Below are positions 1 through 8,977 of a stretch of DNA of 8,977 nucleotides, one piece after another. A program made the translations under genes and the position numbers. Where the stretch lies: IMG/VR virus record IMGVR_UViG_2547132488_000020; one strand, 5' to 3'. The notes beneath the pieces are model-generated. The model made no database searches. It saw nothing but the letters and a program-made list of their open reading frames with translations, and was not told where the DNA came from. Within the stretch, counting starts at the first letter, position 1. Each line of letters begins with the position of its first letter. This DNA is from a virus. Its lineage: Duplodnaviria > Heunggongvirae > Uroviricota > Caudoviricetes.

Positions 1-16
1 AAGATGTGTAAATATT

Positions 17-62
17 GATTACGCCGGATTATGCCGGGTTATTTGCAAGTATTCAGGGTTAT
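17..62 (+). promoter_or_regulatory. Phased 10-bp direct-repeat element, copy A, upstream of the structural operon
   Basis: Hexamers GATTAC (17-22), GATTAT (27-32), GGTTAT (37-42), weaker AAGTAT (47-52) and GGTTAT (57-62) recur at exactly 10-bp spacing. Positions 17-42 match 4897-4922 at 23 of 26 bases. Role as a protein-binding site is inferred. Confidence 0.4.
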
Positions 63-177
63 AAGTTACTGATTTTACATTAAAAAGCTCACATTGTGGC
101 TATTGTGTTCGGCCTGGTTACTGTATATCTTTAAGTCATTCCAGACGATTTATTGCACAACAACCGGAGCATTTTTA

Positions 178-1062
178 ATGAACGTTTTATCTCAACTTAT
201 CAACGACGCGTTGAACCACCAGGGCGGCCATGTTCGCACTGATGGCAACGGTGATATTACTCAATTTATCCCTATGGAACCGGCAGCAGTTCGCTACCTG
301 TCCATGAATGACGTGCTGACCCCGAAAGGCGGCAAGCAGACTACCTTCAACGCTGTTCTGGCTGAACGTTCGCTGGTGGCACAGGCAGGCGCTGAAATCA
401 TCCGCATTCCTGGCCCGATGACCACGCAACCGACCGGCCAGACTGGTGCAACGACTGGCCGCGAAGTGGCTGACCGCTTCGTTGTCATCCGCCCTGGTGC
501 GTTCGCCAAAGTGGCTGACGGCGAAGAAATCAGCATGAGCGGCAAGCCGTACATGGTTGCAGCATTCGACCACAACACCGCACCGGCTTACGGCGTTGGC
601 TACACCCTGACCCGCCAGCAACTGAAACACGAATTCGCTGACGATACAGTGCTGGAAGCGGTCAACACCGCCATTGAACGCGGCATTGCCGATCTGGCTG
701 ACTTCGTGCTGCTGAACCACCTGGAAACCGCAGCGGAAACGCTGGCCAGCCCGTCATTCACCGCAGTGGCGCAGAAGATTGCAGCCAAAAACCTGCGCTT
801 TGATGAAGTTAAAGCCATTGTTGGCGGTGATTGCACCGGCCTGGAACTGCAAGACGGCGTTCTGCGCGCCTACGGTGTACGCGCTGAAATCAGCGGCCAG
901 ACTTCCAGCACAATCATTGGCGCTTTCGGCAATGCAGCCGTTGCCCTGGATGATGAAATTCGCGTCACCGCCAGACGCGTGCTGAATGGTGCGGTTGAAG
1001 TGGTGGTTTGGGTGAACGCATCCGCACTGGTGCCTGACTCAACTATGTTCTGGAAGGCTTGA
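178..1062 (+). CDS. Putative virion structural protein, possibly HK97-fold major capsid-like (294 aa); function unverified
   Basis: Long ORF with ATG at 178 preceded by GGAG (166-169) at 8-nt spacing. The 94-177 extension in the ORF track starts at TTG and reads as hydrophobic noise. Gly/Ala/Thr/Val-rich, acidic composition with a C-terminal segment IIGAFGNAAVALDDEIRV that resembles the conserved C-terminal strand of HK97-family capsid proteins (recalled from memory, not searched). First gene of an operon ending in a tape-measure gene. Confidence 0.6.
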   Translation: MNVLSQLINDALNHQGGHVRTDGNGDITQFIPMEPAAVRYLSMNDVLTPKGGKQTTFNAVLAERSLVAQAGAEIIRIPGPMTTQPTGQTGATTGREVADRFVVIRPGAFAKVADGEEISMSGKPYMVAAFDHNTAPAYGVGYTLTRQQLKHEFADDTVLEAVNTAIERGIADLADFVLLNHLETAAETLASPSFTAVAQKIAAKNLRFDEVKAIVGGDCTGLELQDGVLRAYGVRAEISGQTSSTIIGAFGNAAVALDDEIRVTARRVLNGAVEVVVWVNASALVPDSTMFWKA

Positions 1063-1064
1063 TC

Positions 1065-1379
1065 ATGTGGTGGGGCAGCAAAAAAGCGGCAGCGGAGCGC
1101 GCTGCCCTGCCGGGTGAAATCCTGGCAGCTATCGAAGGTGTGGCCATGTATGTGCGCCACGGTGATGAAAACACACCGCGCATCGTAGTGCAGCCGGTTG
1201 GCTGGTCAGGATTCATCTACAGCGATGACGCTGCTGAAAAATGGATTCGCAAGGCTTACCCGGAGATTAAGCAGTACCAGATTGAACGCGCCGTGAATTA
1301 CCTCGCTTCCCTGGTGCGCAGTCACTACCGCGAGCAGCGCCCGAAACAGAAGCGCGAAAGCTGGATGAACAGGTACTAA
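1065..1379 (+). CDS. Hypothetical protein (104 aa)
   Basis: ATG at 1065 with GGAAGG (1053-1058) SD at 6-nt spacing, 2 nt after the upstream stop; stop TAA 1377-1379 lies 3 nt before the next start. No motif recognised. Confidence 0.55.
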   Translation: MWWGSKKAAAERAALPGEILAAIEGVAMYVRHGDENTPRIVVQPVGWSGFIYSDDAAEKWIRKAYPEIKQYQIERAVNYLASLVRSHYREQRPKQKRESWMNRY

Positions 1380-1382
1380 GCC

Positions 1383-1547
1383 ATGAAACGACAAGAAACA
1401 CGCCAGCACGTAACGGTACGCCTCGCCCCTGACCTGGTGCGCCAGGTCGAAAGAGAGCAAGCCAAACTGGAACGCAGAACAGGCATCCGCCCTTCACGCA
1501 GCCAGGTGATTGAAAAGTTTCTGAGTAGCGGGCTGAACGGCAAATAA
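1383..1547 (+). CDS. Ribbon-helix-helix (CopG/Arc/MetJ-like) DNA-binding protein (54 aa)
   Basis: Hand translation gives MKRQETRQHVTVRLAPDLVRQVEREQAKLERRTGIRPSRSQVIEKFLSSGLNGK. The pattern beta-strand VTVRL, helix PDLVRQVEREQAK, Gly turn, helix RSQVIEKFL is the classic RHH layout. AGGT SD 8 nt upstream. Below the ORF-track size cutoff. Confidence 0.6.
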   Translation: MKRQETRQHVTVRLAPDLVRQVEREQAKLERRTGIRPSRSQVIEKFLSSGLNGK

Positions 1548-1761
1548 TGGCCAAGAATACAGGTTTCACCGGTTCCCTGTGCCCAAAATAACCGGCCAAA
1601 TTTAACCTTCATCGTTCCTCAGACGATGGATGCTGGAACCAGGTTGGTGGTCATCCTGGACGGTCAAAACCACCACTAATTCCACACCGGTTGCGCCGCA
1701 CCGGTCACCTAAAAGCGCGCACTCACTTAATCATCAACAACTATTGTTAGCGGCCAATACT

Positions 1762-2079
1762 ATGAAAAACCATGACCTGTACGAATCAATGAAAGAAGAA
1801 GCGCGTTTGATCCTTAGCGAAACAAAGCGTTTCCAAACCATTTCAGAGAAAAACCCAATCAGCTACGAAGCAGCCGACCTGCTGGCCAGCCTTCGCAACC
1901 GTTTAAACGCATTCGAACACATGACCGATGAAGCCGGTCGCGCCATGCGCAACGAAGCGGAAAGCCACGCATCGACCCTGGAACGCAAGAAGTGGCAACC
2001 ATCCAGCCGCATCAGTTCCGGTGAACGGGCCAAGCGCCAGGCAGTGAAGCGCGGCGCTATCCTGGTGCGGAGCGCATAA
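1762..2079 (+). CDS. Hypothetical helical, charged protein (105 aa; alternative start 1630 gives 149 aa)
   Basis: ORF in frame with 1630..2079. The N-terminal extension from 1630 is low-complexity and overlaps the CACCGGT motifs, so 1762 is preferred, but neither start has a good SD. Stop TAA 2077-2079 is 2 nt before the next ATG. Confidence 0.5.
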   Translation: MKNHDLYESMKEEARLILSETKRFQTISEKNPISYEAADLLASLRNRLNAFEHMTDEAGRAMRNEAESHASTLERKKWQPSSRISSGERAKRQAVKRGAILVRSA

Positions 2080-2081
2080 GA

Positions 2082-2291
2082 ATGGCAACCAACAACAACA
2101 TTTATGAAGCCGTTCTGAACGTCATCGGCGTAGCCGACAAGATGACGAAGAACAACGCAAGCCAACTGACCGACGCACAAAAGTTGGCGATCAAGAACCT
2201 TAGCGGCGCGATGAAGTCCTGGAAAGGTATCACGTTTGGGATGCGCGACATCACCGCCAACGACAAACCAACAGAAAGCAAAACCGCATAA
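2082..2291 (+). CDS. Hypothetical small protein (69 aa)
   Basis: ATG 2082 tightly following the upstream stop, with GGAG 2066-2069 upstream. Position just before the tape-measure gene is where tail assembly chaperones usually sit, but no sequence evidence supports that role. Confidence 0.5.
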   Translation: MATNNNIYEAVLNVIGVADKMTKNNASQLTDAQKLAIKNLSGAMKSWKGITFGMRDITANDKPTESKTA

Positions 2292-2300
2292 GGGGGCACC

Positions 2301-2507
2301 ATGCTGGACCGTATTCACACAAAACCGGAAGGAACAAACCCCTGGCCTGAACTGGTGGATATGGTCCTGCCCAAAGTTATGGTTTGCGAAACAGCGGAGG
2401 GAATGCAGGCACAGCGTAAACATCGCACCGAATGCGCCCTGCAACTGGCTGCTGCCGCCCTGCGGGCTGCTGGTGAACACACCCTGGCAGAAAATCTACT
2501 TAATTAA
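2301..2507 (+). CDS. Hypothetical small protein (68 aa)
   Basis: ATG 2301 preceded by a strong AGGGGG SD (2291-2296). Same reading frame as 2082..2291, separated only by TAA plus 9 nt. Confidence 0.5.
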   Translation: MLDRIHTKPEGTNPWPELVDMVLPKVMVCETAEGMQAQRKHRTECALQLAAAALRAAGEHTLAENLLN

Positions 2508-2528
2508 TTCTTTCAGAGACAAATTATT

Positions 2529-4820
2529 ATGGCCAATAAGAAGTTGAACGCCACAATCACCATCGGGGGTGCCGTTTCCGGCAGCCTCCGCGGTGCTTTT
2601 GGTACGGTGGAGAAATCCACCATCAAGATTGGCGCAGCGATTAAGCACATGTCGCGCGAACAGCGCCAGCTTAACGACGCTATGAAGCGTTATGGGCAAA
2701 ACTCCACGATGGTTGACCGCCTGCGCGGTCGTTACGAAAACATCGTAGGCCAGGTGGAACGCCTGCGGGCTGCGCAAGAGCGTTTAAACAGAGTGCAACG
2801 CGCCAGCACGGAAAACCTGGCCAAGCAGGCACAGCTACGCGGGCAGATTATCGATACCGTTATGGCTGGTGCTGCCGTTGCCGCACCTATCAAGATTGCC
2901 GCAGATCGTGAACAGCACGCCATTGGCATTGCCAAACAACTGGACGGCGCACGCGATGCAGCGGGCAACCTGACGGCGAAGTTTTGGGAAATGCGCAAGG
3001 CCGTTGCTGACCTTGGGCACGAAATTCCACTGGCCACAAACGACCTGTTTGACATGGCCACAGCAGGGCTGCGCATGGGCGTAGCTGGCGACCAAATCCT
3101 GGGGTTCACCCGGAACGTGGCCAAACTGGCCAGCGCCTTGGAACTGAACCCGGAAGAAGTCGCAGACAATATGGGCAAAATCCAGAATGTTTATCGACTT
3201 ACTCAAGCTGAGCTTGTGCGCCTTGGTGATGCTATTAATTACCTGGACGACCAAAACACCGTTAAAGGCGGTGAGCTTATCGACTTCCTACAGCGTGTTG
3301 GTGGTTCCGCCTCCCTCGCCAAACTCACTGCCAACGATATGGCAGCAATCGGCACCACGCTGATTTCTATGGGTGAAAGCGCAGACACTGCCGCAACGTC
3401 AGTGAAGGCGCTTGTTTCCAAGATGACGCTGGGCAGCAAATCCACGAAATCTGCGCGCGAAGCGTTCAAGGAATTGGGTTATTCCGCGCAGGAAGTGGCG
3501 AAATCCATGCAACTGGATAGCGTCAAGACCATCGAAAACTTTATGAAGACGGTCAACAAGCTGCCAGATTACAAGAAATCCGGCATCCTGGTGTCCATCT
3601 TCGGGCAGGAACACGTTGGTTCTATCTCCAAACTGGCAGCCAACATGGACAAGTTTGGCGAGGCGTTGCACCAGGCTAATGGCGAAATGTCCAAAGGCAG
3701 TGTGCAGAAGGAATTCCAGAACACCGTCAACACCACCAACGCGCAGATGGTTATCCTGCGTAACCGCACCGCTGACGTGGCTGACAATATCGGCACCGTC
3801 CTGCTGCCGACCGTCAACGACGCAGCCAAAGGCATTGGCCGCATCACAACTGTTGTGGCGAACTTCGCGGCGGAACACCCCGGCCTGACCAAAGCCGTGG
3901 TGGGCACAGCGATGGCGCTCACGTCCCTGCGTGTGGCCACCCTGGCGGCGCAGTTCGGCTTCACGTTCCTGAAAGGTGGCGTGTTGCAGATGTCCAGCCT
4001 GTTTGCCCGCATGAACGCATCTGCCGTTCTGGCCAGCACCCGTGGCCTGCCTGCGGTGGCTACCGGCATTCGTGCCGTTGGTGCGGCGTTCATATCCACT
4101 GGCGTGGGTGCTGCCGTAGCTGGCCTGGCGCTGGCAGGTTATCAGATTTACCGCCATTGGGCCGGTGTGAAGGCTTTTTTTGGTGGCGTTGGTGAAGGCA
4201 TCAAATCCGGGTTGGAACCGCTTAGCGATGCCCTGCATCGCCTGTATGAGCGCATGGGGCCATTGAAGCCCGTCATTGATGGCGTGGGCGCTGCGGTTAA
4301 GACGGTTTTCAACTGGTTCACGTCACTGACCGAACCGGTCAAATACAGCGGCGAGGAACTGGATAAGGCCGGTAAAATGGGGATGACGTTCGGTAAGACC
4401 CTGGCGGCTGGCATCGAGCTTGTGACCGCACCGATCACGTTCCTGATTGATAAGATTCTGTGGGTGTCTGACAACATCGGCAACCTGACCAACAAGGCAC
4501 TGGAGTTTAAAAACGCCGTGTCTGATGTTGCTGGTGGTGCGTGGCAGAAAACCAAAGATTTCTTTAGCAATCCGTTCGGTGAAGACGAAAGCAGCCAGCC
4601 AGCAGCGACCGCCGCCCCTGGTGCGTCCTTGCCTTCACCGGCACTGGCTAACCGCACCGGCAACACAACGGTGAACACGAACGACCAGTACACCATCAAC
4701 GTGAAGGCCGAGCCTGGCATGAATGAAGATGCGCTGGCAAATAAGGTGGCGCAGAAGCTGAAACAGCAGCAAGGAATCCGAAATCGTAGCATGATGAATG
4801 ACGGATTAGCAGCACCGTAA
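2529..4820 (+). CDS. Phage tail tape-measure protein-like (763 aa)
   Basis: Uninterrupted 2292-nt ORF. N-terminal Arg/Gln/Glu/Ala-rich helical region; a core (approx. aa 150-330) reading ATNDLFDMATAGLRMGVAGDQILGFTRNVAKLASALELNPEEVADNMGKI ... IGTTLISMGESADTAATSVKALVSKMTLGS that matches my memory of the TP901-family tape-measure core; a long Gly/Ala-rich hydrophobic segment (approx. aa 450-560). Size and layout are typical of TMPs. Not verified by search. Confidence 0.75.
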   Translation: MANKKLNATITIGGAVSGSLRGAFGTVEKSTIKIGAAIKHMSREQRQLNDAMKRYGQNSTMVDRLRGRYENIVGQVERLRAAQERLNRVQRASTENLAKQAQLRGQIIDTVMAGAAVAAPIKIAADREQHAIGIAKQLDGARDAAGNLTAKFWEMRKAVADLGHEIPLATNDLFDMATAGLRMGVAGDQILGFTRNVAKLASALELNPEEVADNMGKIQNVYRLTQAELVRLGDAINYLDDQNTVKGGELIDFLQRVGGSASLAKLTANDMAAIGTTLISMGESADTAATSVKALVSKMTLGSKSTKSAREAFKELGYSAQEVAKSMQLDSVKTIENFMKTVNKLPDYKKSGILVSIFGQEHVGSISKLAANMDKFGEALHQANGEMSKGSVQKEFQNTVNTTNAQMVILRNRTADVADNIGTVLLPTVNDAAKGIGRITTVVANFAAEHPGLTKAVVGTAMALTSLRVATLAAQFGFTFLKGGVLQMSSLFARMNASAVLASTRGLPAVATGIRAVGAAFISTGVGAAVAGLALAGYQIYRHWAGVKAFFGGVGEGIKSGLEPLSDALHRLYERMGPLKPVIDGVGAAVKTVFNWFTSLTEPVKYSGEELDKAGKMGMTFGKTLAAGIELVTAPITFLIDKILWVSDNIGNLTNKALEFKNAVSDVAGGAWQKTKDFFSNPFGEDESSQPAATAAPGASLPSPALANRTGNTTVNTNDQYTINVKAEPGMNEDALANKVAQKLKQQQGIRNRSMMNDGLAAP

Positions 4821-4845: not shown

Positions 4846-4877
4846 AAAGCCTGGGTGAAAACTCTGGCTTTTTTTTA
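4846..4877 (+). terminator. Intrinsic terminator after the tape-measure gene
   Basis: Hairpin 4846-4856 pairing with 4861-4871 (about 11 bp, one mismatch, one GU) around a GAAA tetraloop, followed by T8 (4869-4876). Confidence 0.6.
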
Positions 4878-4896: not shown

Positions 4897-4922
4897 GATT
4901 ATGCCGGATTATGTGGGGTTAT
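4897..4922 (+). promoter_or_regulatory. Phased 10-bp direct-repeat element, copy B, upstream of the replication operon
   Basis: GATTATGCCGGATTATGTGGGGTTAT; 23 of 26 bases identical to 17-42, with GATTAT, GATTAT, GGTTAT at 10-bp phasing. Confidence 0.4.
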
Positions 4923-5025: not shown

Positions 5026-5050
5026 TTGTGGCGCTTGCACACCGCCACAA
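5026..5050. promoter_or_regulatory. Perfect inverted repeat TTGTGGCG-N9-CGCCACAA (operator-like or RNA hairpin)
   Basis: 8-bp perfect arms 5026-5033 and 5043-5050 with a 9-bp spacer, sitting at the predicted start site of the 4993-5020 promoter. Confidence 0.35.
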
Positions 5051-5051
5051 A

Positions 5052-5120
5052 AAGGAAAACCCCCGGACTGCGCGAACAATCCAGGGGGCTTAATGAAAGT
5101 CTAGGTTAGCGGCCTGACTA
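5052..5120 (-). ncRNA. Candidate small antisense RNA (about 65 nt) with its own promoter and intrinsic terminator
   Basis: On the minus strand: TTGCTA (plus 5150-5155), 17-bp spacer, TAGTAT (plus 5127-5132); no ATG in the transcribed stretch; GC-rich hairpin (plus 5060-5066 pairing with 5081-5088, one bulge) followed on the minus strand by UUUUCCUUUUU (plus 5049-5059). Ends are approximate. Confidence 0.3.
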
Positions 5121-5221
5121 GGAAAAATACTAGCAAAGACCTTTACCTTTAGCAAGTTAAACCCCCCTTCATTGAGCCACCGATTTTAGCGCAGCCTCAA
5201 CGAAATATTGAGGAATGCGAA

Positions 5222-5497
5222 ATGAAATTGCACGACCTGGCTGACGCCATCCTGAAAACCAGAACCGTTGAAACTCGCTGTGATGCTGCGTTCAAATTCG
5301 CTGACGCTATGCTGCGCAACGGTTCAAGCATCACCGACACAGCGGAAGCAACCTACCGCATTGTAATGCGCGGGAACAAAGCCTACCGCCTGAACAAAGA
5401 TGACGCCTGGCGCATCACTGCGCACGCCTACGCTGAACAACTGGCGGAACGCGAAGTGGCCACCGTCCTGGCGCAGATTGCCGGGGGTGCGAAATGA
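5222..5497 (+). CDS. Small hypothetical protein, first gene of the replication operon (91 aa)
   Basis: ATG 5222 with GAGGA SD (5210-5214) at 7-nt spacing; stop overlaps the next start as ATGA. Shares the motif [YF]x[LF]N[KR]xDAW and an AGGA[KA] C-terminus with the next ORF. Confidence 0.6.
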   Translation: MKLHDLADAILKTRTVETRCDAAFKFADAMLRNGSSITDTAEATYRIVMRGNKAYRLNKDDAWRITAHAYAEQLAEREVATVLAQIAGGAK

Positions 5498-5727
5498 GCA
5501 TCATCACCCTGCATCGCCTTATGCGCGAACCTGCTACCAGCCAGACGCACGCACAGTGCGTGGCCATCATGCAGGAACTGATTAAGCAGGCCATCCAGTC
5601 TGGCCGCCCGCTGCAATATTCCATCTACCTGGGGCACCTGGCAGAGCACACCCGCTTCCCGTTCAACCGCGTGGACGCCTGGCAAATGGCGCTGGATATG
5701 CAGCGCAAGGCAGGGGGTGCGGCATGA
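5494..5727 (+). CDS. Small hypothetical protein resembling the preceding ORF (77 aa)
   Basis: Start overlaps the upstream stop (ATGA at 5494-5497) and its stop overlaps the primase start (ATGA at 5724-5727). GGGGGTG SD-like sequence sits inside the upstream C-terminus. Confidence 0.6.
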   Translation: MSIITLHRLMREPATSQTHAQCVAIMQELIKQAIQSGRPLQYSIYLGHLAEHTRFPFNRVDAWQMALDMQRKAGGAA

Positions 5728-8012
5728 GTCTGGCACACGAAAAGTACGCCTGGACTGAACAGGACGCAGCCGAGGCGTTGACATTTATTGACCCTGATTG
5801 CGACCACGAAACCTGGACCCGCCTGGCGTTTGCGGTGAAGGCTGAATTTGGTGACGCTGGATTTGATGTCTGGAACGATTGGAGCAAACAGGGCCAGAAG
5901 TACGACAGCAAAGAAGCACGCCAGAAGTGGAAAAGCGCCAAGCGGCACGGCGGAGTAACCATCGGCACGCTGATTGACCTTTCCATGCAGAACGGCTGGA
6001 AGCCGGGCACCAGGAAAGAGCTTTCAATAGACGAGATTCAGGCTCGCGCCGCGAAGCGTGAGGCCGAAGCTAAAGCCGAGGCAGAGCGCAAGCGCCACGA
6101 CCAGGCAGCAGCGGCAGCCCGCGCCCTGGAAATATGGGAAGCATCGGAACCGCTGGAAGGTAACGAACACCCGTATTTGCAGCGCAAAGGTGTGCTGTCT
6201 TTCGGCCTGAACGTTGGCCGCTGGAAGGGATACGAAAATGCACTGCTGGTGCCAATCCGCAACGCTGATGGTTCCCTAACCAGCTTGCAGGCAATCTTCC
6301 CGAACACCAACACTGACCTGGGCCGTGACCGTGACTACCTGAAAGACGGCCAGAAGCACGGTTGTTTCCACCTGATTGGCGGTAAGCCTGTTGGCGAAAA
6401 GCCGGTGATTGTGGTTTGCGAGGGTTACGCCACTGGTGCCAGCATCCACCAGGCAACAGGCCATTACGTGGCCGTGGCTTTCGACAGGAGCAACCTTAAA
6501 GCTGTGGCGCAGGCCATGCGCAAGATGGTTGGCCGCGCCACAATAATTGTGGCCGCTGATAACGACCAGTGGGAGAAGGGCAACCCCGGAAAAACCGATG
6601 CAGGTAAGGCAGCGCAGGCGGTTGGCGGCCTGGTGGCTGTGCCTGAATTCGATGACCTGACCACGAAGCCGACCGACTTCAACGACCTGCATAAATTGCA
6701 GGGAATTGATGCCGTGCGCAGCCAGGTGCAGGCTGTTATTCCAGCACCGGAGGAAAAGCGGTTCCTGCCACTGGATTCTAATGTGGTGCCGTTTGACTTC
6801 CCCTACACGTCAGACAGGATGCAGCCGCTTAACAACTGGGAAAACCTTGATTGGCTGTTAAGTCAGTACGGCATTACCGCTCGTTACAACGAGATCAGCA
6901 AGGAAGTTGAAATCAACGTGCCTGGTAAAAGCTATGGCGGTGACGGTGATGACGATAGCGCGCTGATTGAAGTGACCAGCCTGTGCGCCCGTAACCGGAT
7001 GCCAAAAGCTGACGTGGCTGACTACATCAAACTGATTGGCAAAGAGAACCGTTACAACCCGGTCAAAGACTTCATTCTGTCCAGGCCGTGGGATGGTTGC
7101 AGCCGGTTTGCTGACCTGTTAGCCACCATTGAAACGCCAGCAGATTACAGCCGTGACCTGATGGCGCTACTGATGAAACGCTGGCTGGTGTCGGCAGTGG
7201 CGGCGACATTTGAGGAACGCGGGTTCTGGTCCAAAGGCATCCTGGTGTTCCAGGGGGAGCAATCCCTTGGGAAAACGTCATGGATTAAGGCGCTGCTGCC
7301 GGAGGAAGAACAGGAAAAGCTATTGCTGGTTGGTGCTGCGATGGACCCTAGCAACAAAGACAGCGTATCGCAGGCAATTGGCCGCTGGATTGTGGAGCTT
7401 GGCGAACTGGACACCACATTCCGCAAGTCTGACATATCGGACCTGAAAAACTTCATCAGCCGCCCACATGACGTGCTGCGCAAGCCGTATGATCGCCGTG
7501 AATCGAAGTATAAGCGCAGGACTGTGTTCTTCGCATCAGTGAACCCGAAACACTTCCTGCATGACGAAACCGGCAACGTGCGTTTCTGGACCATTCCGGT
7601 GACCGGGCTGAACTATAATCACGGCATCGACGTGCAGCAGTTATGGGCCGAAGTGCATCACTGGTACACGAAAGGCGAACGCTGGTGGCTGGAACGCGAG
7701 GAAGAACAGCGCCTGGAAGCGGTGAACGCTGACCACGCGCAGGTTGACCCGCTCGAGGAAATGATTTTAGCCCGCTTCCGCTGGGATGAAACCCGCATGG
7801 AGGTTTACACCGAAATGTCAGCCGCAGAAGTGCTGATAGCGATTGGCTACGACAAGCCAACCAAATCGCAGGCCACATCATGCGGCAACATCCTGCGCAA
7901 GCTGACTGGCAAGGAGCCGCGCAGAACAGCCAAAGGGCGGTTCTACCCGATACCGCCAAAAGAATTACCAAAGCCACAAAGCTATTACGACGAAACCCAA
8001 GGCCCATTTTGA
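5724..8012 (+). CDS. Replicative primase-helicase, P4 alpha-type (Toprim primase plus P-loop NTPase; 762 aa)
   Basis: Toprim motifs VVCEGYATG (Glu233, nt 6417-6425) and AADNDQW (Asp279/Asp281, nt 6558-6566); Walker A GEQSLGKTS (aa 511-519, nt 7254-7280); Walker B-like IVELGELD; Trp-rich N-terminal domain ending GVTIGTLIDL. Architecture matches the phage/plasmid primase P4 family from memory. Confidence 0.9.
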   Translation: MSLAHEKYAWTEQDAAEALTFIDPDCDHETWTRLAFAVKAEFGDAGFDVWNDWSKQGQKYDSKEARQKWKSAKRHGGVTIGTLIDLSMQNGWKPGTRKELSIDEIQARAAKREAEAKAEAERKRHDQAAAAARALEIWEASEPLEGNEHPYLQRKGVLSFGLNVGRWKGYENALLVPIRNADGSLTSLQAIFPNTNTDLGRDRDYLKDGQKHGCFHLIGGKPVGEKPVIVVCEGYATGASIHQATGHYVAVAFDRSNLKAVAQAMRKMVGRATIIVAADNDQWEKGNPGKTDAGKAAQAVGGLVAVPEFDDLTTKPTDFNDLHKLQGIDAVRSQVQAVIPAPEEKRFLPLDSNVVPFDFPYTSDRMQPLNNWENLDWLLSQYGITARYNEISKEVEINVPGKSYGGDGDDDSALIEVTSLCARNRMPKADVADYIKLIGKENRYNPVKDFILSRPWDGCSRFADLLATIETPADYSRDLMALLMKRWLVSAVAATFEERGFWSKGILVFQGEQSLGKTSWIKALLPEEEQEKLLLVGAAMDPSNKDSVSQAIGRWIVELGELDTTFRKSDISDLKNFISRPHDVLRKPYDRRESKYKRRTVFFASVNPKHFLHDETGNVRFWTIPVTGLNYNHGIDVQQLWAEVHHWYTKGERWWLEREEEQRLEAVNADHAQVDPLEEMILARFRWDETRMEVYTEMSAAEVLIAIGYDKPTKSQATSCGNILRKLTGKEPRRTAKGRFYPIPPKELPKPQSYYDETQGPF

Positions 8013-8022
8013 GGAATAAATC

Positions 8023-8250
8023 ATGAGTTATCGCGCGATCATCAGTACATTTGACCCTGAAAACGCATCAACTGTTAACACTGAATTATTCCAGACCTTC
8101 GCAACCGCACCAGAAGCGGAAGCACATGGACGGAAATCACTTGCAGAGATTCAGCAGGAATTCTTCCAGATGGGTTATGCGTTCATCGTCAGCTACTTCA
8201 TCGTTGAAGTACCAGCGGCGGAAATCATCCAGTTTATTGCCCGCACGTAA
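8023..8250 (+). CDS. Hypothetical small protein (75 aa) at the end of the replication operon
   Basis: ATG 8023 with GAGGA SD 7 nt upstream, 10 nt after the primase stop; followed by a terminator. No motif recognised. Confidence 0.55.
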   Translation: MSYRAIISTFDPENASTVNTELFQTFATAPEAEAHGRKSLAEIQQEFFQMGYAFIVSYFIVEVPAAEIIQFIART

Positions 8251-8273
8251 CATCACAACAATTGTTGTTCACC

Positions 8274-8300
8274 GCCCTGGCACCTGCCGGGGCTTTTTTA
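8274..8300 (+). terminator. Intrinsic terminator closing the replication operon
   Basis: Stem 8274-8281 pairing with 8286-8293 (8 bp including one GU), 4-nt loop, then T6 (8294-8299). Confidence 0.6.
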
Positions 8301-8311
8301 TTGTCTGGCTG

Positions 8312-8572
8312 TGACACCTAGGTGTCATCCTGTCTTAAGGTGTCACAGTCGTAAGTGTCTGTTTTTGCTTATTAATGACACCTATGACACCTATGACACC
8401 TATTTTGAAAGATTTATTAGACCGTAAAAAACCGCCGCGAAATAACGGTTACCCTTTTTTTGAAAACAGGTGTCAAGGTGTCACTACCAACCCATGCAAT
8501 CAGCATAAATCGCATATGAATCATGCACTTATGTGTGTGACACCTATGGTGACACCTCAACCCAAGGTGTCA
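8312..8572. repeat. Iteron array: 11 copies of heptamer TGACACC/GGTGTCA flanking an AT-rich stretch; putative replication origin
   Basis: Forward copies at 8312, 8376, 8385, 8394, 8538, 8550; reverse copies at 8321, 8339, 8469, 8477, 8566. Includes a perfect 16-bp palindrome (8312-8327) and three tandem TGACACCTA 9-mers (8376-8402). AT-rich segment 8401-8466 with A6 and T7 runs. Confidence 0.7.
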
Positions 8573-8977
8573 TTCTTTCAGGGCATAGCTGCGCACCGTT
8601 ATGGCGTTATGAATCCACTCATTTGTAACAACGCTTTTTCACATCTAACCAAAGCGGCAGCCGGAATAGGTACAACATACAGAAGTATGATGTAACTACA
8701 GGAAACGAGCCTTTCAGCCTTGTTTTGCGTTCAAACAGTAGCTGCTCAGTAAACAGCCAGAACGTTGCACATATCGCAACAATAAGCCTGTGTGAATACG
8801 GGCTGAAAGCGCGCGGAATATGTCAGATTATGCGCCGTTCGCCTGCCAGCACCTTCCTGGTGCTTCTTTCTGCCTGCAAACCCACCATATTTAACATAAT
8901 GGACCTTGCGCGCACCGACTGGACGCCTGCCTGCCTCAAAAATCGAAGGTACTTCCGAGGGGGCACAGCCTGCGGGG

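Follow-up and report, generated by a model that had tools for sequence, protein, structure and literature searches.

Phage satellites, to our knowledge, were long thought to manipulate only the capsids and packaging of their helpers. Experimental proof that a satellite can also manipulate tails, with its own tape-measure protein (TMP), came only in 2026 with the PLEs of Vibrio, which are so far the only system in which the function of a lone satellite TMP has been demonstrated. Western blots, mass spectrometry, and transduction assays established that the PLE TMP replaces that of the helper phage ICP1 in virions and that the helper TMP is excluded (PMC12987554). Deletion of the PLE TMP lowers transduction, and in PLE11 the 80-aa protein Rta blocks the TMP of the helper (PMC12987554). 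Here we describe a TMP gene located at positions 2529-4820 of an 8,977-nt stretch of viral DNA (IMG/VR record IMGVR_UViG_2547132488_000020), referred to in its full length as the window. The gene is part of a ∼9-kb element that, judged by its sequence and that of its relatives, is very probably a phage satellite with a P4-like lifestyle.

The window element resembles the PLEs (PLE11, PLE1, and PLE4) in that it appears to be a satellite of a mostly virulent myophage and encodes its own TMP without sheath, tube, or fiber genes. The PLEs, unlike the window element, encode a tail assembly chaperone, often a baseplate hub, and, in the case of PLE11, Rta, none of which was detected here. The PLE TMP is ∼20% identical to that of ICP1, differs from it by 95 aa in length, and gives tails that are ∼10 nm shorter, whereas the window TMP matches that of its putative helper type in length and is 44% identical to it, with local values of up to 98% in relatives. 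In addition, the PLEs are integrated and use the capsid protein of the helper, whereas the window element is a plasmid with an HK97-fold capsid protein of its own.

With P4, the satellite of P2, the element shares a small replicon (11.6 kb in P4) that is found as a plasmid or integrated, a Toprim and D5/VapE primase-helicase, a cos site apparently copied from a helper with a P2-type contractile tail, and the lack of portal and terminase genes; P4 has no tail genes and the window element has none besides the TMP gene. P4 differs in that it has neither a capsid protein nor a TMP and instead resizes P2 capsids with Sid and Psu. PHROG and Pfam searches of the window revealed no homologs of Sid, Psu, Delta, or Epsilon, and only the alpha-like primase is present. 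The helper group differs as well, with Jilinvirus the most likely one for the window element in place of P2.

The cf-PICIs, which are ∼12-15 kb in size, also encode their own major capsid protein, and their int-alpA-primase layout is found in chromosomal relatives of the window element. Unlike the window element, they encode a portal, a protease, head-tail connectors, and a small terminase. Some cf-PICIs carry predicted tmp genes (PMC12987554, Extended Data Fig. 10), and those shown may include the chromosomal form of the satellite described here. Satellites with TMPs are also reported from Mycolicibacterium, where the EPIPs combine capsid-related genes and a TMP with no other tail genes (bioRxiv 2025 preprint, PMC12822802). 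The EPIPs are actinobacterial and encode a serine integrase, a small terminase, head-tail adaptors, and a scaffold, and their tails are much longer and more variable than those of the helper, whereas the tail length of the window element is predicted to be unchanged. The element is thus PLE-like in its TMP, P4-like in its lifestyle and cos piracy, and cf-PICI-like in its capsid protein, and it fails the defining features of each. We did not equate the window family with the 8.9-kb encapsulin-like mini-virus contigs from the human gut (bioRxiv 10.1101/2025.06.18.659913) because the genes described for those differ (sigma factors, RepA, and an integrase, with no tail genes). A search of the accessible literature for a Jilinvirus or Iiscvirinae satellite, or for a description of the window family, found none.

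A lone tape-measure gene

The TMP open reading frame (ORF) runs on the plus strand from the ATG at 2529 to the TAA at 4818-4820 and encodes a 763-aa product, which is a TP901-type tail tape-measure protein with scores far above chance. The Pfam profile PF10145 (PhageMin_Tail) was matched over its whole model by aa 156-359 (E=7.6e-38, 130.8 bits) and the NCBIfam profile TIGR01760 (tape_meas_TP901) by aa 111-467 (E=7.3e-67, 225.8 bits). Both profiles had been named in the initial annotation of this DNA, and both scores are well above the curated cut-offs of 33.2 and 28.8 bits, respectively. The PHROG family phrog_28, 'tail length tape measure protein', was matched by aa 22-754 (E=1.8e-105). TMPs usually show hydrophobic segments and an Ala/Gly/Leu-rich composition, and the window TMP has this composition as well as hydrophobic segments at aa 107-125, 456-474, and 516-538. 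The annotated TMPs of 41-44 kb myophages are full-length, collinear homologs with 42-47% identity, and the alignments with those of ep3, HeidiAbel, Persinger, and others have 100% coverage. Of the features of the phage TMPs, the window protein has kept the first 30 aa, the hydrophobic segments, and the RSMMxDG motif at the C terminus, which argues against an earlier suggestion that the domain has been repurposed.

The TMP gene closes a string of plus-strand genes (178-4820) that consists of a 294-aa ORF, then ORFs of ∼104, 54, 104, 69, and 68 aa, and finally the TMP gene. It is followed by a hairpin with a U8 run (4846-4876, plus strand), which has the appearance of an intrinsic terminator for this structural operon and is weak by itself (z = -1.65). 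In exactly the same position, the diverged relatives L004 and L005 each have a hairpin that is GC-rich, unlike that of the window, and followed by a T-run, and the terminator is therefore a conserved feature. Downstream of it lie two small ORFs and a 762-aa PriCT_2-Toprim-VapE primase-helicase (5222-8012 in all). The gene order proposed initially, with a lone TMP gene at the 3' end of its operon followed by a terminator and the replication module, was thus confirmed along with its coordinates. The premise that a phage TMP gene is followed by distal tail genes also holds for the related phages. On one long contig the order is sheath, tube, Phage_TAC_7 chaperone, TMP, gpU, gpX, gpD, and the same sheath-tube-chaperone-TMP-gpU-gpX-gpD order is present in HeidiAbel. 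In the complete form of the window element, the neighbors of the TMP gene are two small proteins upstream and the terminator downstream, with no recognizable chaperone and no distal tail or baseplate genes. This absence of the usual neighbors is the anomaly that defines the finding.

The complete form is the circular 9,138-bp Escherichia coli plasmid pSCU-121-2 (CP054330.1), to which the window corresponds at 99% identity with 161 nt missing; the window is also collinear with the 8,933-bp plasmid pM121-3. The TMP gene is the sole recognizable tail gene among the 11 annotated genes of pSCU-121-2, so that the possibility of a full tail gene set adjacent to it in the complete element is set aside. 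The other window ORFs that were scanned had no tail-family matches in Pfam, PHROGs, or NCBIfam, and neither a portal, a protease, head-tail connectors, nor a small terminase/HNH was detected in the window or in pSCU-121-2. The only recognizable virion genes of the plasmid are those of the TMP and of a capsid-like protein.

Related elements occur as plasmids and as chromosomal islands. A match of any kind to the structural module was found in 66 of 5,426 complete E. coli genomes, and the left half of the window (1-4732) is present in 65 E. coli chromosomes at 91-97% identity. The chromosomal form is an island of ∼9.4 kb located between yhdJ and fis that encodes an integrase, an AlpA-type helix-turn-helix protein, and a different VapE primase; here too the TMP gene is the last gene, and it adjoins fis. 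The element has five plasmid records. Among the relatives, a 9.3-kb Salmonella plasmid carries an AbiEi-family antitoxin annotation as cargo, and in one E. coli plasmid record of 17,382 bp, possibly a dimer, the module is present twice (NZ_CP100673.1 and CP077066.1). Protein searches also retrieved a large number of independent contigs, 8.9-9.6 kb in length, whose sources include E. coli, Salmonella, Enterobacter, and Cronobacter, and the gene order is kept in the relatives examined. In a circular 10-kb element of Pseudomonas fluorescens, the primase, capsid, and TMP genes are arranged as in the window, and its capsid protein and TMP are 40% and 41% identical, respectively, to those of the window. 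Because the arrangement reaches this element, the pairing of the capsid gene with the TMP gene must be old.

The replication modules have been swapped. The window encodes a Jilinvirus-type primase, L004 and L005 encode proteins of a PriCT_2 and DUF5906 type, pM121-3 has another VapE-type primase (<85% nt identity to that of the window), and the chromosomal forms have a 562-aa VapE protein together with their integrase. The satellite family is therefore modular, since sister satellites carry unrelated replication modules. The complete relatives are 8.9-9.4 kb circles or int-AlpA-primase islands without a portal, a terminase, or another tail gene. Together with a helper-type cos site, described below, the plasmid and island states and the missing virion genes bear out, with high probability, the idea that the TMP is encoded by a satellite.

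Jilinvirus-like sequences and exchange of the gene

Jilinvirus (subfamily Iiscvirinae) comprises 41-44 kb enterobacterial myophages with P2-type contractile tails and mostly virulent behavior (PMC11990801). Three sequences shared with these phages, namely the cos motif, the primase, and the TMP, suggest that Jilinvirus-type myophages are most likely what the element parasitizes. The cos motif begins in the last 43 nt of the window (8935-8977, plus strand), where the window end cuts it, and is continued in the plasmids, with the remainder in the 161 nt absent from the window. Over 65-73 nt it is 92-97% identical to Jilinvirus phages (E to 5e-24), and its only matches in 50,697 phage records are to ep3, ECO1230-10, HeidiAbel, PT1, Alux-21, ECOO78, and Arya. 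There is no annotated feature under the match in six of these seven phages, and in the two that were inspected, HeidiAbel and ECOO78, the motif is noncoding and located just upstream of terS. Within the motif lie the 13 nt (GGGGCATTGGTCC) by which the termini of the linear ECOO78 record overlap, and the Arya record starts at the same place, a pattern that cohesive ends would leave in a genome record. The motif is also present in the integrated E. coli copies, upstream of the capsid gene. The window itself ends 4 nt into the 13-nt overlap sequence of ECOO78, and it may break off there by chance or because the source data had a cos end at this point.

The window primase is 60.7% identical to that of HeidiAbel over its full length. 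The best phage matches of the window TMP are likewise full-length TMPs, from Jilinviruses and Pseudomonas relatives (42-47% identity). Among the best 120 database homologs, those with at least 54% identity are encoded on ∼9-10 kb contigs or on chromosomes, and those with 53% identity or less are largely encoded on 40-46 kb contigs. On the long contigs, the latter homologs belong to sheath-tube-TAC-TMP-gpU-gpX-gpD clusters in genomes of ∼42 kb.

An analysis of TMP genes in codon-aligned sliding windows revealed that the satellite and phage genes recombine. The 8,960-bp relative L004 is 96% identical to the window at the nucleotide level over the capsid module (1-2080) and just 40-55% identical in the TMP core. 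Within the L004 gene, a segment of ∼500 nt is 96-98% identical to the TMP gene of HeidiAbel, and the last ∼300 nt are 95-99% identical to the window TMP gene and unlike that of the phage. The core of the window gene resembles another phage type (L007, 72-80% nt identity). At synonymous sites, the window and L004 have diverged far more in the TMP gene (dS 1.05) than in the capsid gene (dS 0.15). Furthermore, in two metagenome contigs (L008 and L009, 46 and 42 kb) from different samples (ERZ17860043 and ERZ8811409), satellite DNA is joined to HeidiAbel-like phage DNA within the TMP gene. The satellite side consists of iterons, cos, and the capsid module and is 99% identical to L004 up to the shared ∼500-nt TMP segment, with iterons like those of the window at the satellite end of L008. 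The phage side extends from the TMP 3' end through gpU, gpX, and gpD onward and is 92-96% identical to HeidiAbel. These contigs may be either true recombinants or assembly chimeras, and the latter would detract from the satellite-helper interpretation; in both cases satellite and phage were together in those samples.

In a comparison of 23 satellite and 44 phage TMPs, the between-group identity is 0.80 at aa 1-30, whereas aa 31-60 and 721-750 have a within-group identity of 0.70-0.79 and a between-group identity of 0.27-0.32. Because the flanking genes are non-homologous, conversion tracts must start and stop inside the gene, and this mechanical limit is the simplest explanation for the satellite-specific ends; a functional meaning is possible. 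The satellite TMPs are under purifying selection, with ratios of nonsynonymous to synonymous substitution (dN/dS) of 0.20-0.38 against other satellites.

The length of the protein is also conserved, at 756-795 aa in satellites, ∼741-838 aa in the helper type, and 781-785 aa in E. coli Jilinviruses. The main difference between the window TMP and the E. coli Jilinvirus TMPs is a 21-aa gap, equivalent to ∼3 nm at the usual 0.15 nm per residue. Since the lengths match and the gap is this small, a change in tail length is not the point, and we rejected the proposal in the initial annotation that the satellite redirects the tail length of its helper.

A further observation concerns a satellite relative in a 33-kb contig from a Salmonella sample (L019, ERR11194586). 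At 3346-14536 this contig contains a Jilinvirus-like prophage whose major head gene is interrupted, with matches to aa 9-453 and aa 446-681 of the HeidiAbel head protein located 9.1 kb apart. The insertion encodes an integrase, an AAA_25 helicase, and a protease-capsid fusion, the capsid part of which is 52% identical to the window capsid protein, and a 16-bp direct repeat (ATCCCCAAACAAACAG) is present at both junctions. From this arrangement, the relative appears to integrate into the capsid gene of its own helper type.

Possible roles of the tape-measure protein

We consider it probable, by analogy with the PLEs, that the element is a P4-style satellite whose own TMP replaces that of the helper as the ruler and core of chimeric tails that are otherwise built from Jilinvirus proteins. 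Upon helper infection, the satellite would replicate with its own primase-helicase and be packaged through the cos site copied from the helper, and its HK97-fold capsid protein would either build small heads or resize those of the helper. The full-length satellite TMP would then displace the helper TMP in tails assembled with the helper sheath, tube, gpE-type chaperone, and gpU/X/D hub, and would be incorporated into particles with chimeric tails of essentially normal length. The leading idea for a benefit is a transfer that is independent of, or selective against, the helper TMP, as in PLE11, with altered DNA entry as an alternative. A role like that of the PLE TMP is suggested because the termini and the length are conserved and because helper sequences are repeatedly matched; the steps that go beyond gene identity, shared sequences, recombination, and selection are ones that we infer. 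That a satellite TMP redirects helper tail assembly or DNA ejection, as first proposed for this gene, is plausible in light of the PLEs (PMC12987554).

Several points weigh against this chimeric-tail hypothesis. The window TMP is only 44% identical to the known E. coli Jilinvirus TMPs, the true helper of the window element is not in the phage collection, and no Jilinvirus-like sheath, tube, or TMP DNA was detected in the 5,426 complete E. coli genomes. No gene for a tail assembly chaperone or a baseplate hub was found with Pfam, PHROG, NCBIfam, hhalign, or a fold search of the 68-aa protein, and the TMP would therefore have to work with helper partners; the 68- or 69-aa protein, or another one, may be a novel chaperone. 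The TMP gene occupies a terminal operon slot that often holds accessory or defense cargo in satellites, and two related lineages with islands at the same fis site lack it, one widespread in Serratia (L020) and the other found in Klebsiella/Raoultella (L022). In L022, homologs of the 69- and 68-aa proteins are kept and two minus-strand ORFs take the place of the TMP gene. The TMP is therefore dispensable to the lifestyle, since two related lineages do without it. The Serratia island encodes a SocA_Panacea-domain protein at 7838-8386 as cargo.

A broader form of the chimeric-tail hypothesis, which we regard as possible and put forward tentatively, is that the elements constitute an undescribed minimal satellite family (∼9 kb, with cos, primase, capsid, and TMP) of the little-studied Jilinvirus/Iiscvirinae myophages in which the TMP is a swappable compatibility cassette. 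The TMP core would be repeatedly exchanged with that of the current helper by gene conversion, and the satellite-specific aa 31-60 and 721-750 would favor the satellite TMP over the helper TMP in tail assembly. The 68- and 69-aa proteins, which are found only in satellites, might assist as a novel chaperone or as an Rta-like inhibitor.

The TMP could also be built into tails and confer its benefit at the next infection, through a changed passage of DNA across the envelope. Examples of such entry specialization are an escape from superinfection exclusion or host-factor needs aimed at the helper TMP, or a fit to ejection from small heads. TMPs are ejected and are targeted by exclusion systems, the window TMP has hydrophobic segments of a membrane type, and aa 31-60 and 721-750 are conserved among satellites and different in phages. 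We nevertheless regard this explanation as unlikely, since the limits of gene conversion inside the gene could account for these signature ends without any function.

It is quite unlikely, in our assessment, that the satellite TMP mainly poisons helper tail assembly, through mixed oligomers or titration of the chaperone, as a population-level defense. A terminal, variable slot and absence from two related lineages are indeed what would be expected for accessory cargo, segments nearly identical to the helper TMP would favor co-assembly, and the 21-aa gap relative to phage TMPs falls in a hydrophobic region. Interference with tail assembly by satellites is documented for Rta (PMC12987554) and Tai (PMC11364771). 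However, from E. coli to Pseudomonas the protein keeps its full length and both terminal motifs under purifying selection, which a decoy would not need, and the poisoning would also be to the detriment of a satellite that itself depends on helper-type tails for its spread. PADLOC gave no match.

That the TMP is a functionless leftover of recombination, or the element an ordinary small plasmid and no satellite, is very improbable. In its favor are the evident mosaic of phage genes produced by recombination, the typing of the plasmids as non-mobilizable, and the existence of relatives without a TMP. Against it, a 2.3-kb ORF that makes up a quarter of the element is intact in hundreds of cluster members from many genera with a dN/dS of 0.2-0.4, and it would be difficult to account for the helper cos site and the HK97 capsid gene if the element were a plain plasmid.

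The chimeric-tail hypothesis would extend the TMP strategy of the PLEs to E. coli, Salmonella, Klebsiella, and Pseudomonas and to a much smaller element. The idea of a satellite TMP is itself no longer new; what makes the present case attractive is that the gene set is minimal, the helper assignment clear, the exchange of the TMP gene visible, and a route to experiments at hand. With no second tail gene in the element, the role of the TMP can be studied in clean isolation, and the relatives that lack it (L020 and L022) are natural controls. The system is also tractable, as the plasmid resides in sequenced E. coli isolates and the candidate helper genus is represented in the public BASEL collection (HeidiAbel, Bas97). 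The BASEL authors called the lifestyle of Jilinviruses enigmatic (PMC11990801), and these phages now gain a first candidate satellite. The TMP gene would also exemplify gene conversion that is still taking place between a helper and its parasite. Should the swappable-cassette interpretation prove true, TMP-based tail hijacking would be a general, convergent strategy of satellites and not a peculiarity of the PLEs.

Other features of the window

The first gene of the structural operon (178-1062, plus strand) encodes the 294-aa HK97-fold major-capsid-like protein. No homolog of this protein was detectable among the 50,697 phage records, and some of its distant homologs are fused to an HK97 prohead protease. 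That the capsid gene was copied from the helper was rejected, as its product has no detectable similarity to the major head protein of HeidiAbel or to any phage record.

Five small genes separate the capsid gene from the TMP gene, all on the plus strand. The first encodes a 104-aa protein (1065-1379) that is conserved in all relatives examined, including the one from Pseudomonas. The second encodes a 54-aa protein (1383-1547) that is conserved in the enterobacterial relatives and resembles a ribbon-helix-helix protein by eye only. These are followed by a conserved helical 104-aa protein with a basic C terminus (1765-2079), whose extended 149-aa form, read from 1630, lacks conservation in L005, and by an accessory 69-aa protein (2082-2291) that is absent from L004. 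Directly upstream of the TMP gene lies that of a conserved 68-aa protein (2301-2507). Searches of the 54-, 69-, and 68-aa and both ∼104-aa proteins against Pfam (to E 10), PHROG, NCBIfam, and PADLOC gave matches at chance level only, as did searches of PDB profiles for which the two ∼104-aa proteins were each represented by an alignment.

The 68-aa protein has 20 homologs, every one of which is in a satellite-type context. Its AlphaFold2 model predicts three helices (mean pLDDT 78), for which no fold match was found in BFVD. Comparison with the gpE-type chaperone of phages by hhalign gave probabilities of 0.04% for the 68-aa protein and 0.6% for the 69-aa protein. The two ORFs are in the same frame with a stop codon between them. 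A frameshifted chaperone made from both was considered and rejected, as there is no plausible extension and no frameshift signal, and the +1 ORF at 2236-2547 looks noncoding.

A 26-nt repeat of the GATTAYGCCGG type is located on the plus strand upstream of both the structural operon (17-42) and the replication operon (4897-4922), with a weaker copy at 8816-8833. It has no match in the HeidiAbel genome, and we therefore rejected a late-activator site shared with that phage. The repeat is probably an operator or promoter element of the satellite itself, and it is a candidate for one shared by the two operons.

Between the TMP gene and the replication operon, a conserved stretch of ∼120 nt (5050-5175) is closed on the minus strand by a strong terminator (5087-5060), in which a T-run comes after 12 pairs. 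The predicted fold of the stretch, which is conserved in three lineages, comprises three hairpins, and of its 40 pairs 6 are maintained among these lineages although both partners have changed. An Rfam scan that included it gave no significant match. The minus-strand transcript is a candidate for a small structured RNA with a regulatory or copy-control function.

The replication operon begins with the two small ORFs (91 and 77 aa; 5222-5727, plus strand), which have no family matches in Pfam, PHROG, or NCBIfam. They are followed by the primase-helicase gene (5724-8012, plus strand), whose product has PriCT_2, Toprim, and VapE/D5-like domains by Pfam and PHROG matches. An ORF at 8375-8695 is probably spurious. 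It lies in a cluster of GGTGTCAC iterons (8320-8575) that consists of direct and inverted repeats and, from its arrangement and its position downstream of the primase operon, is probably the replication origin.

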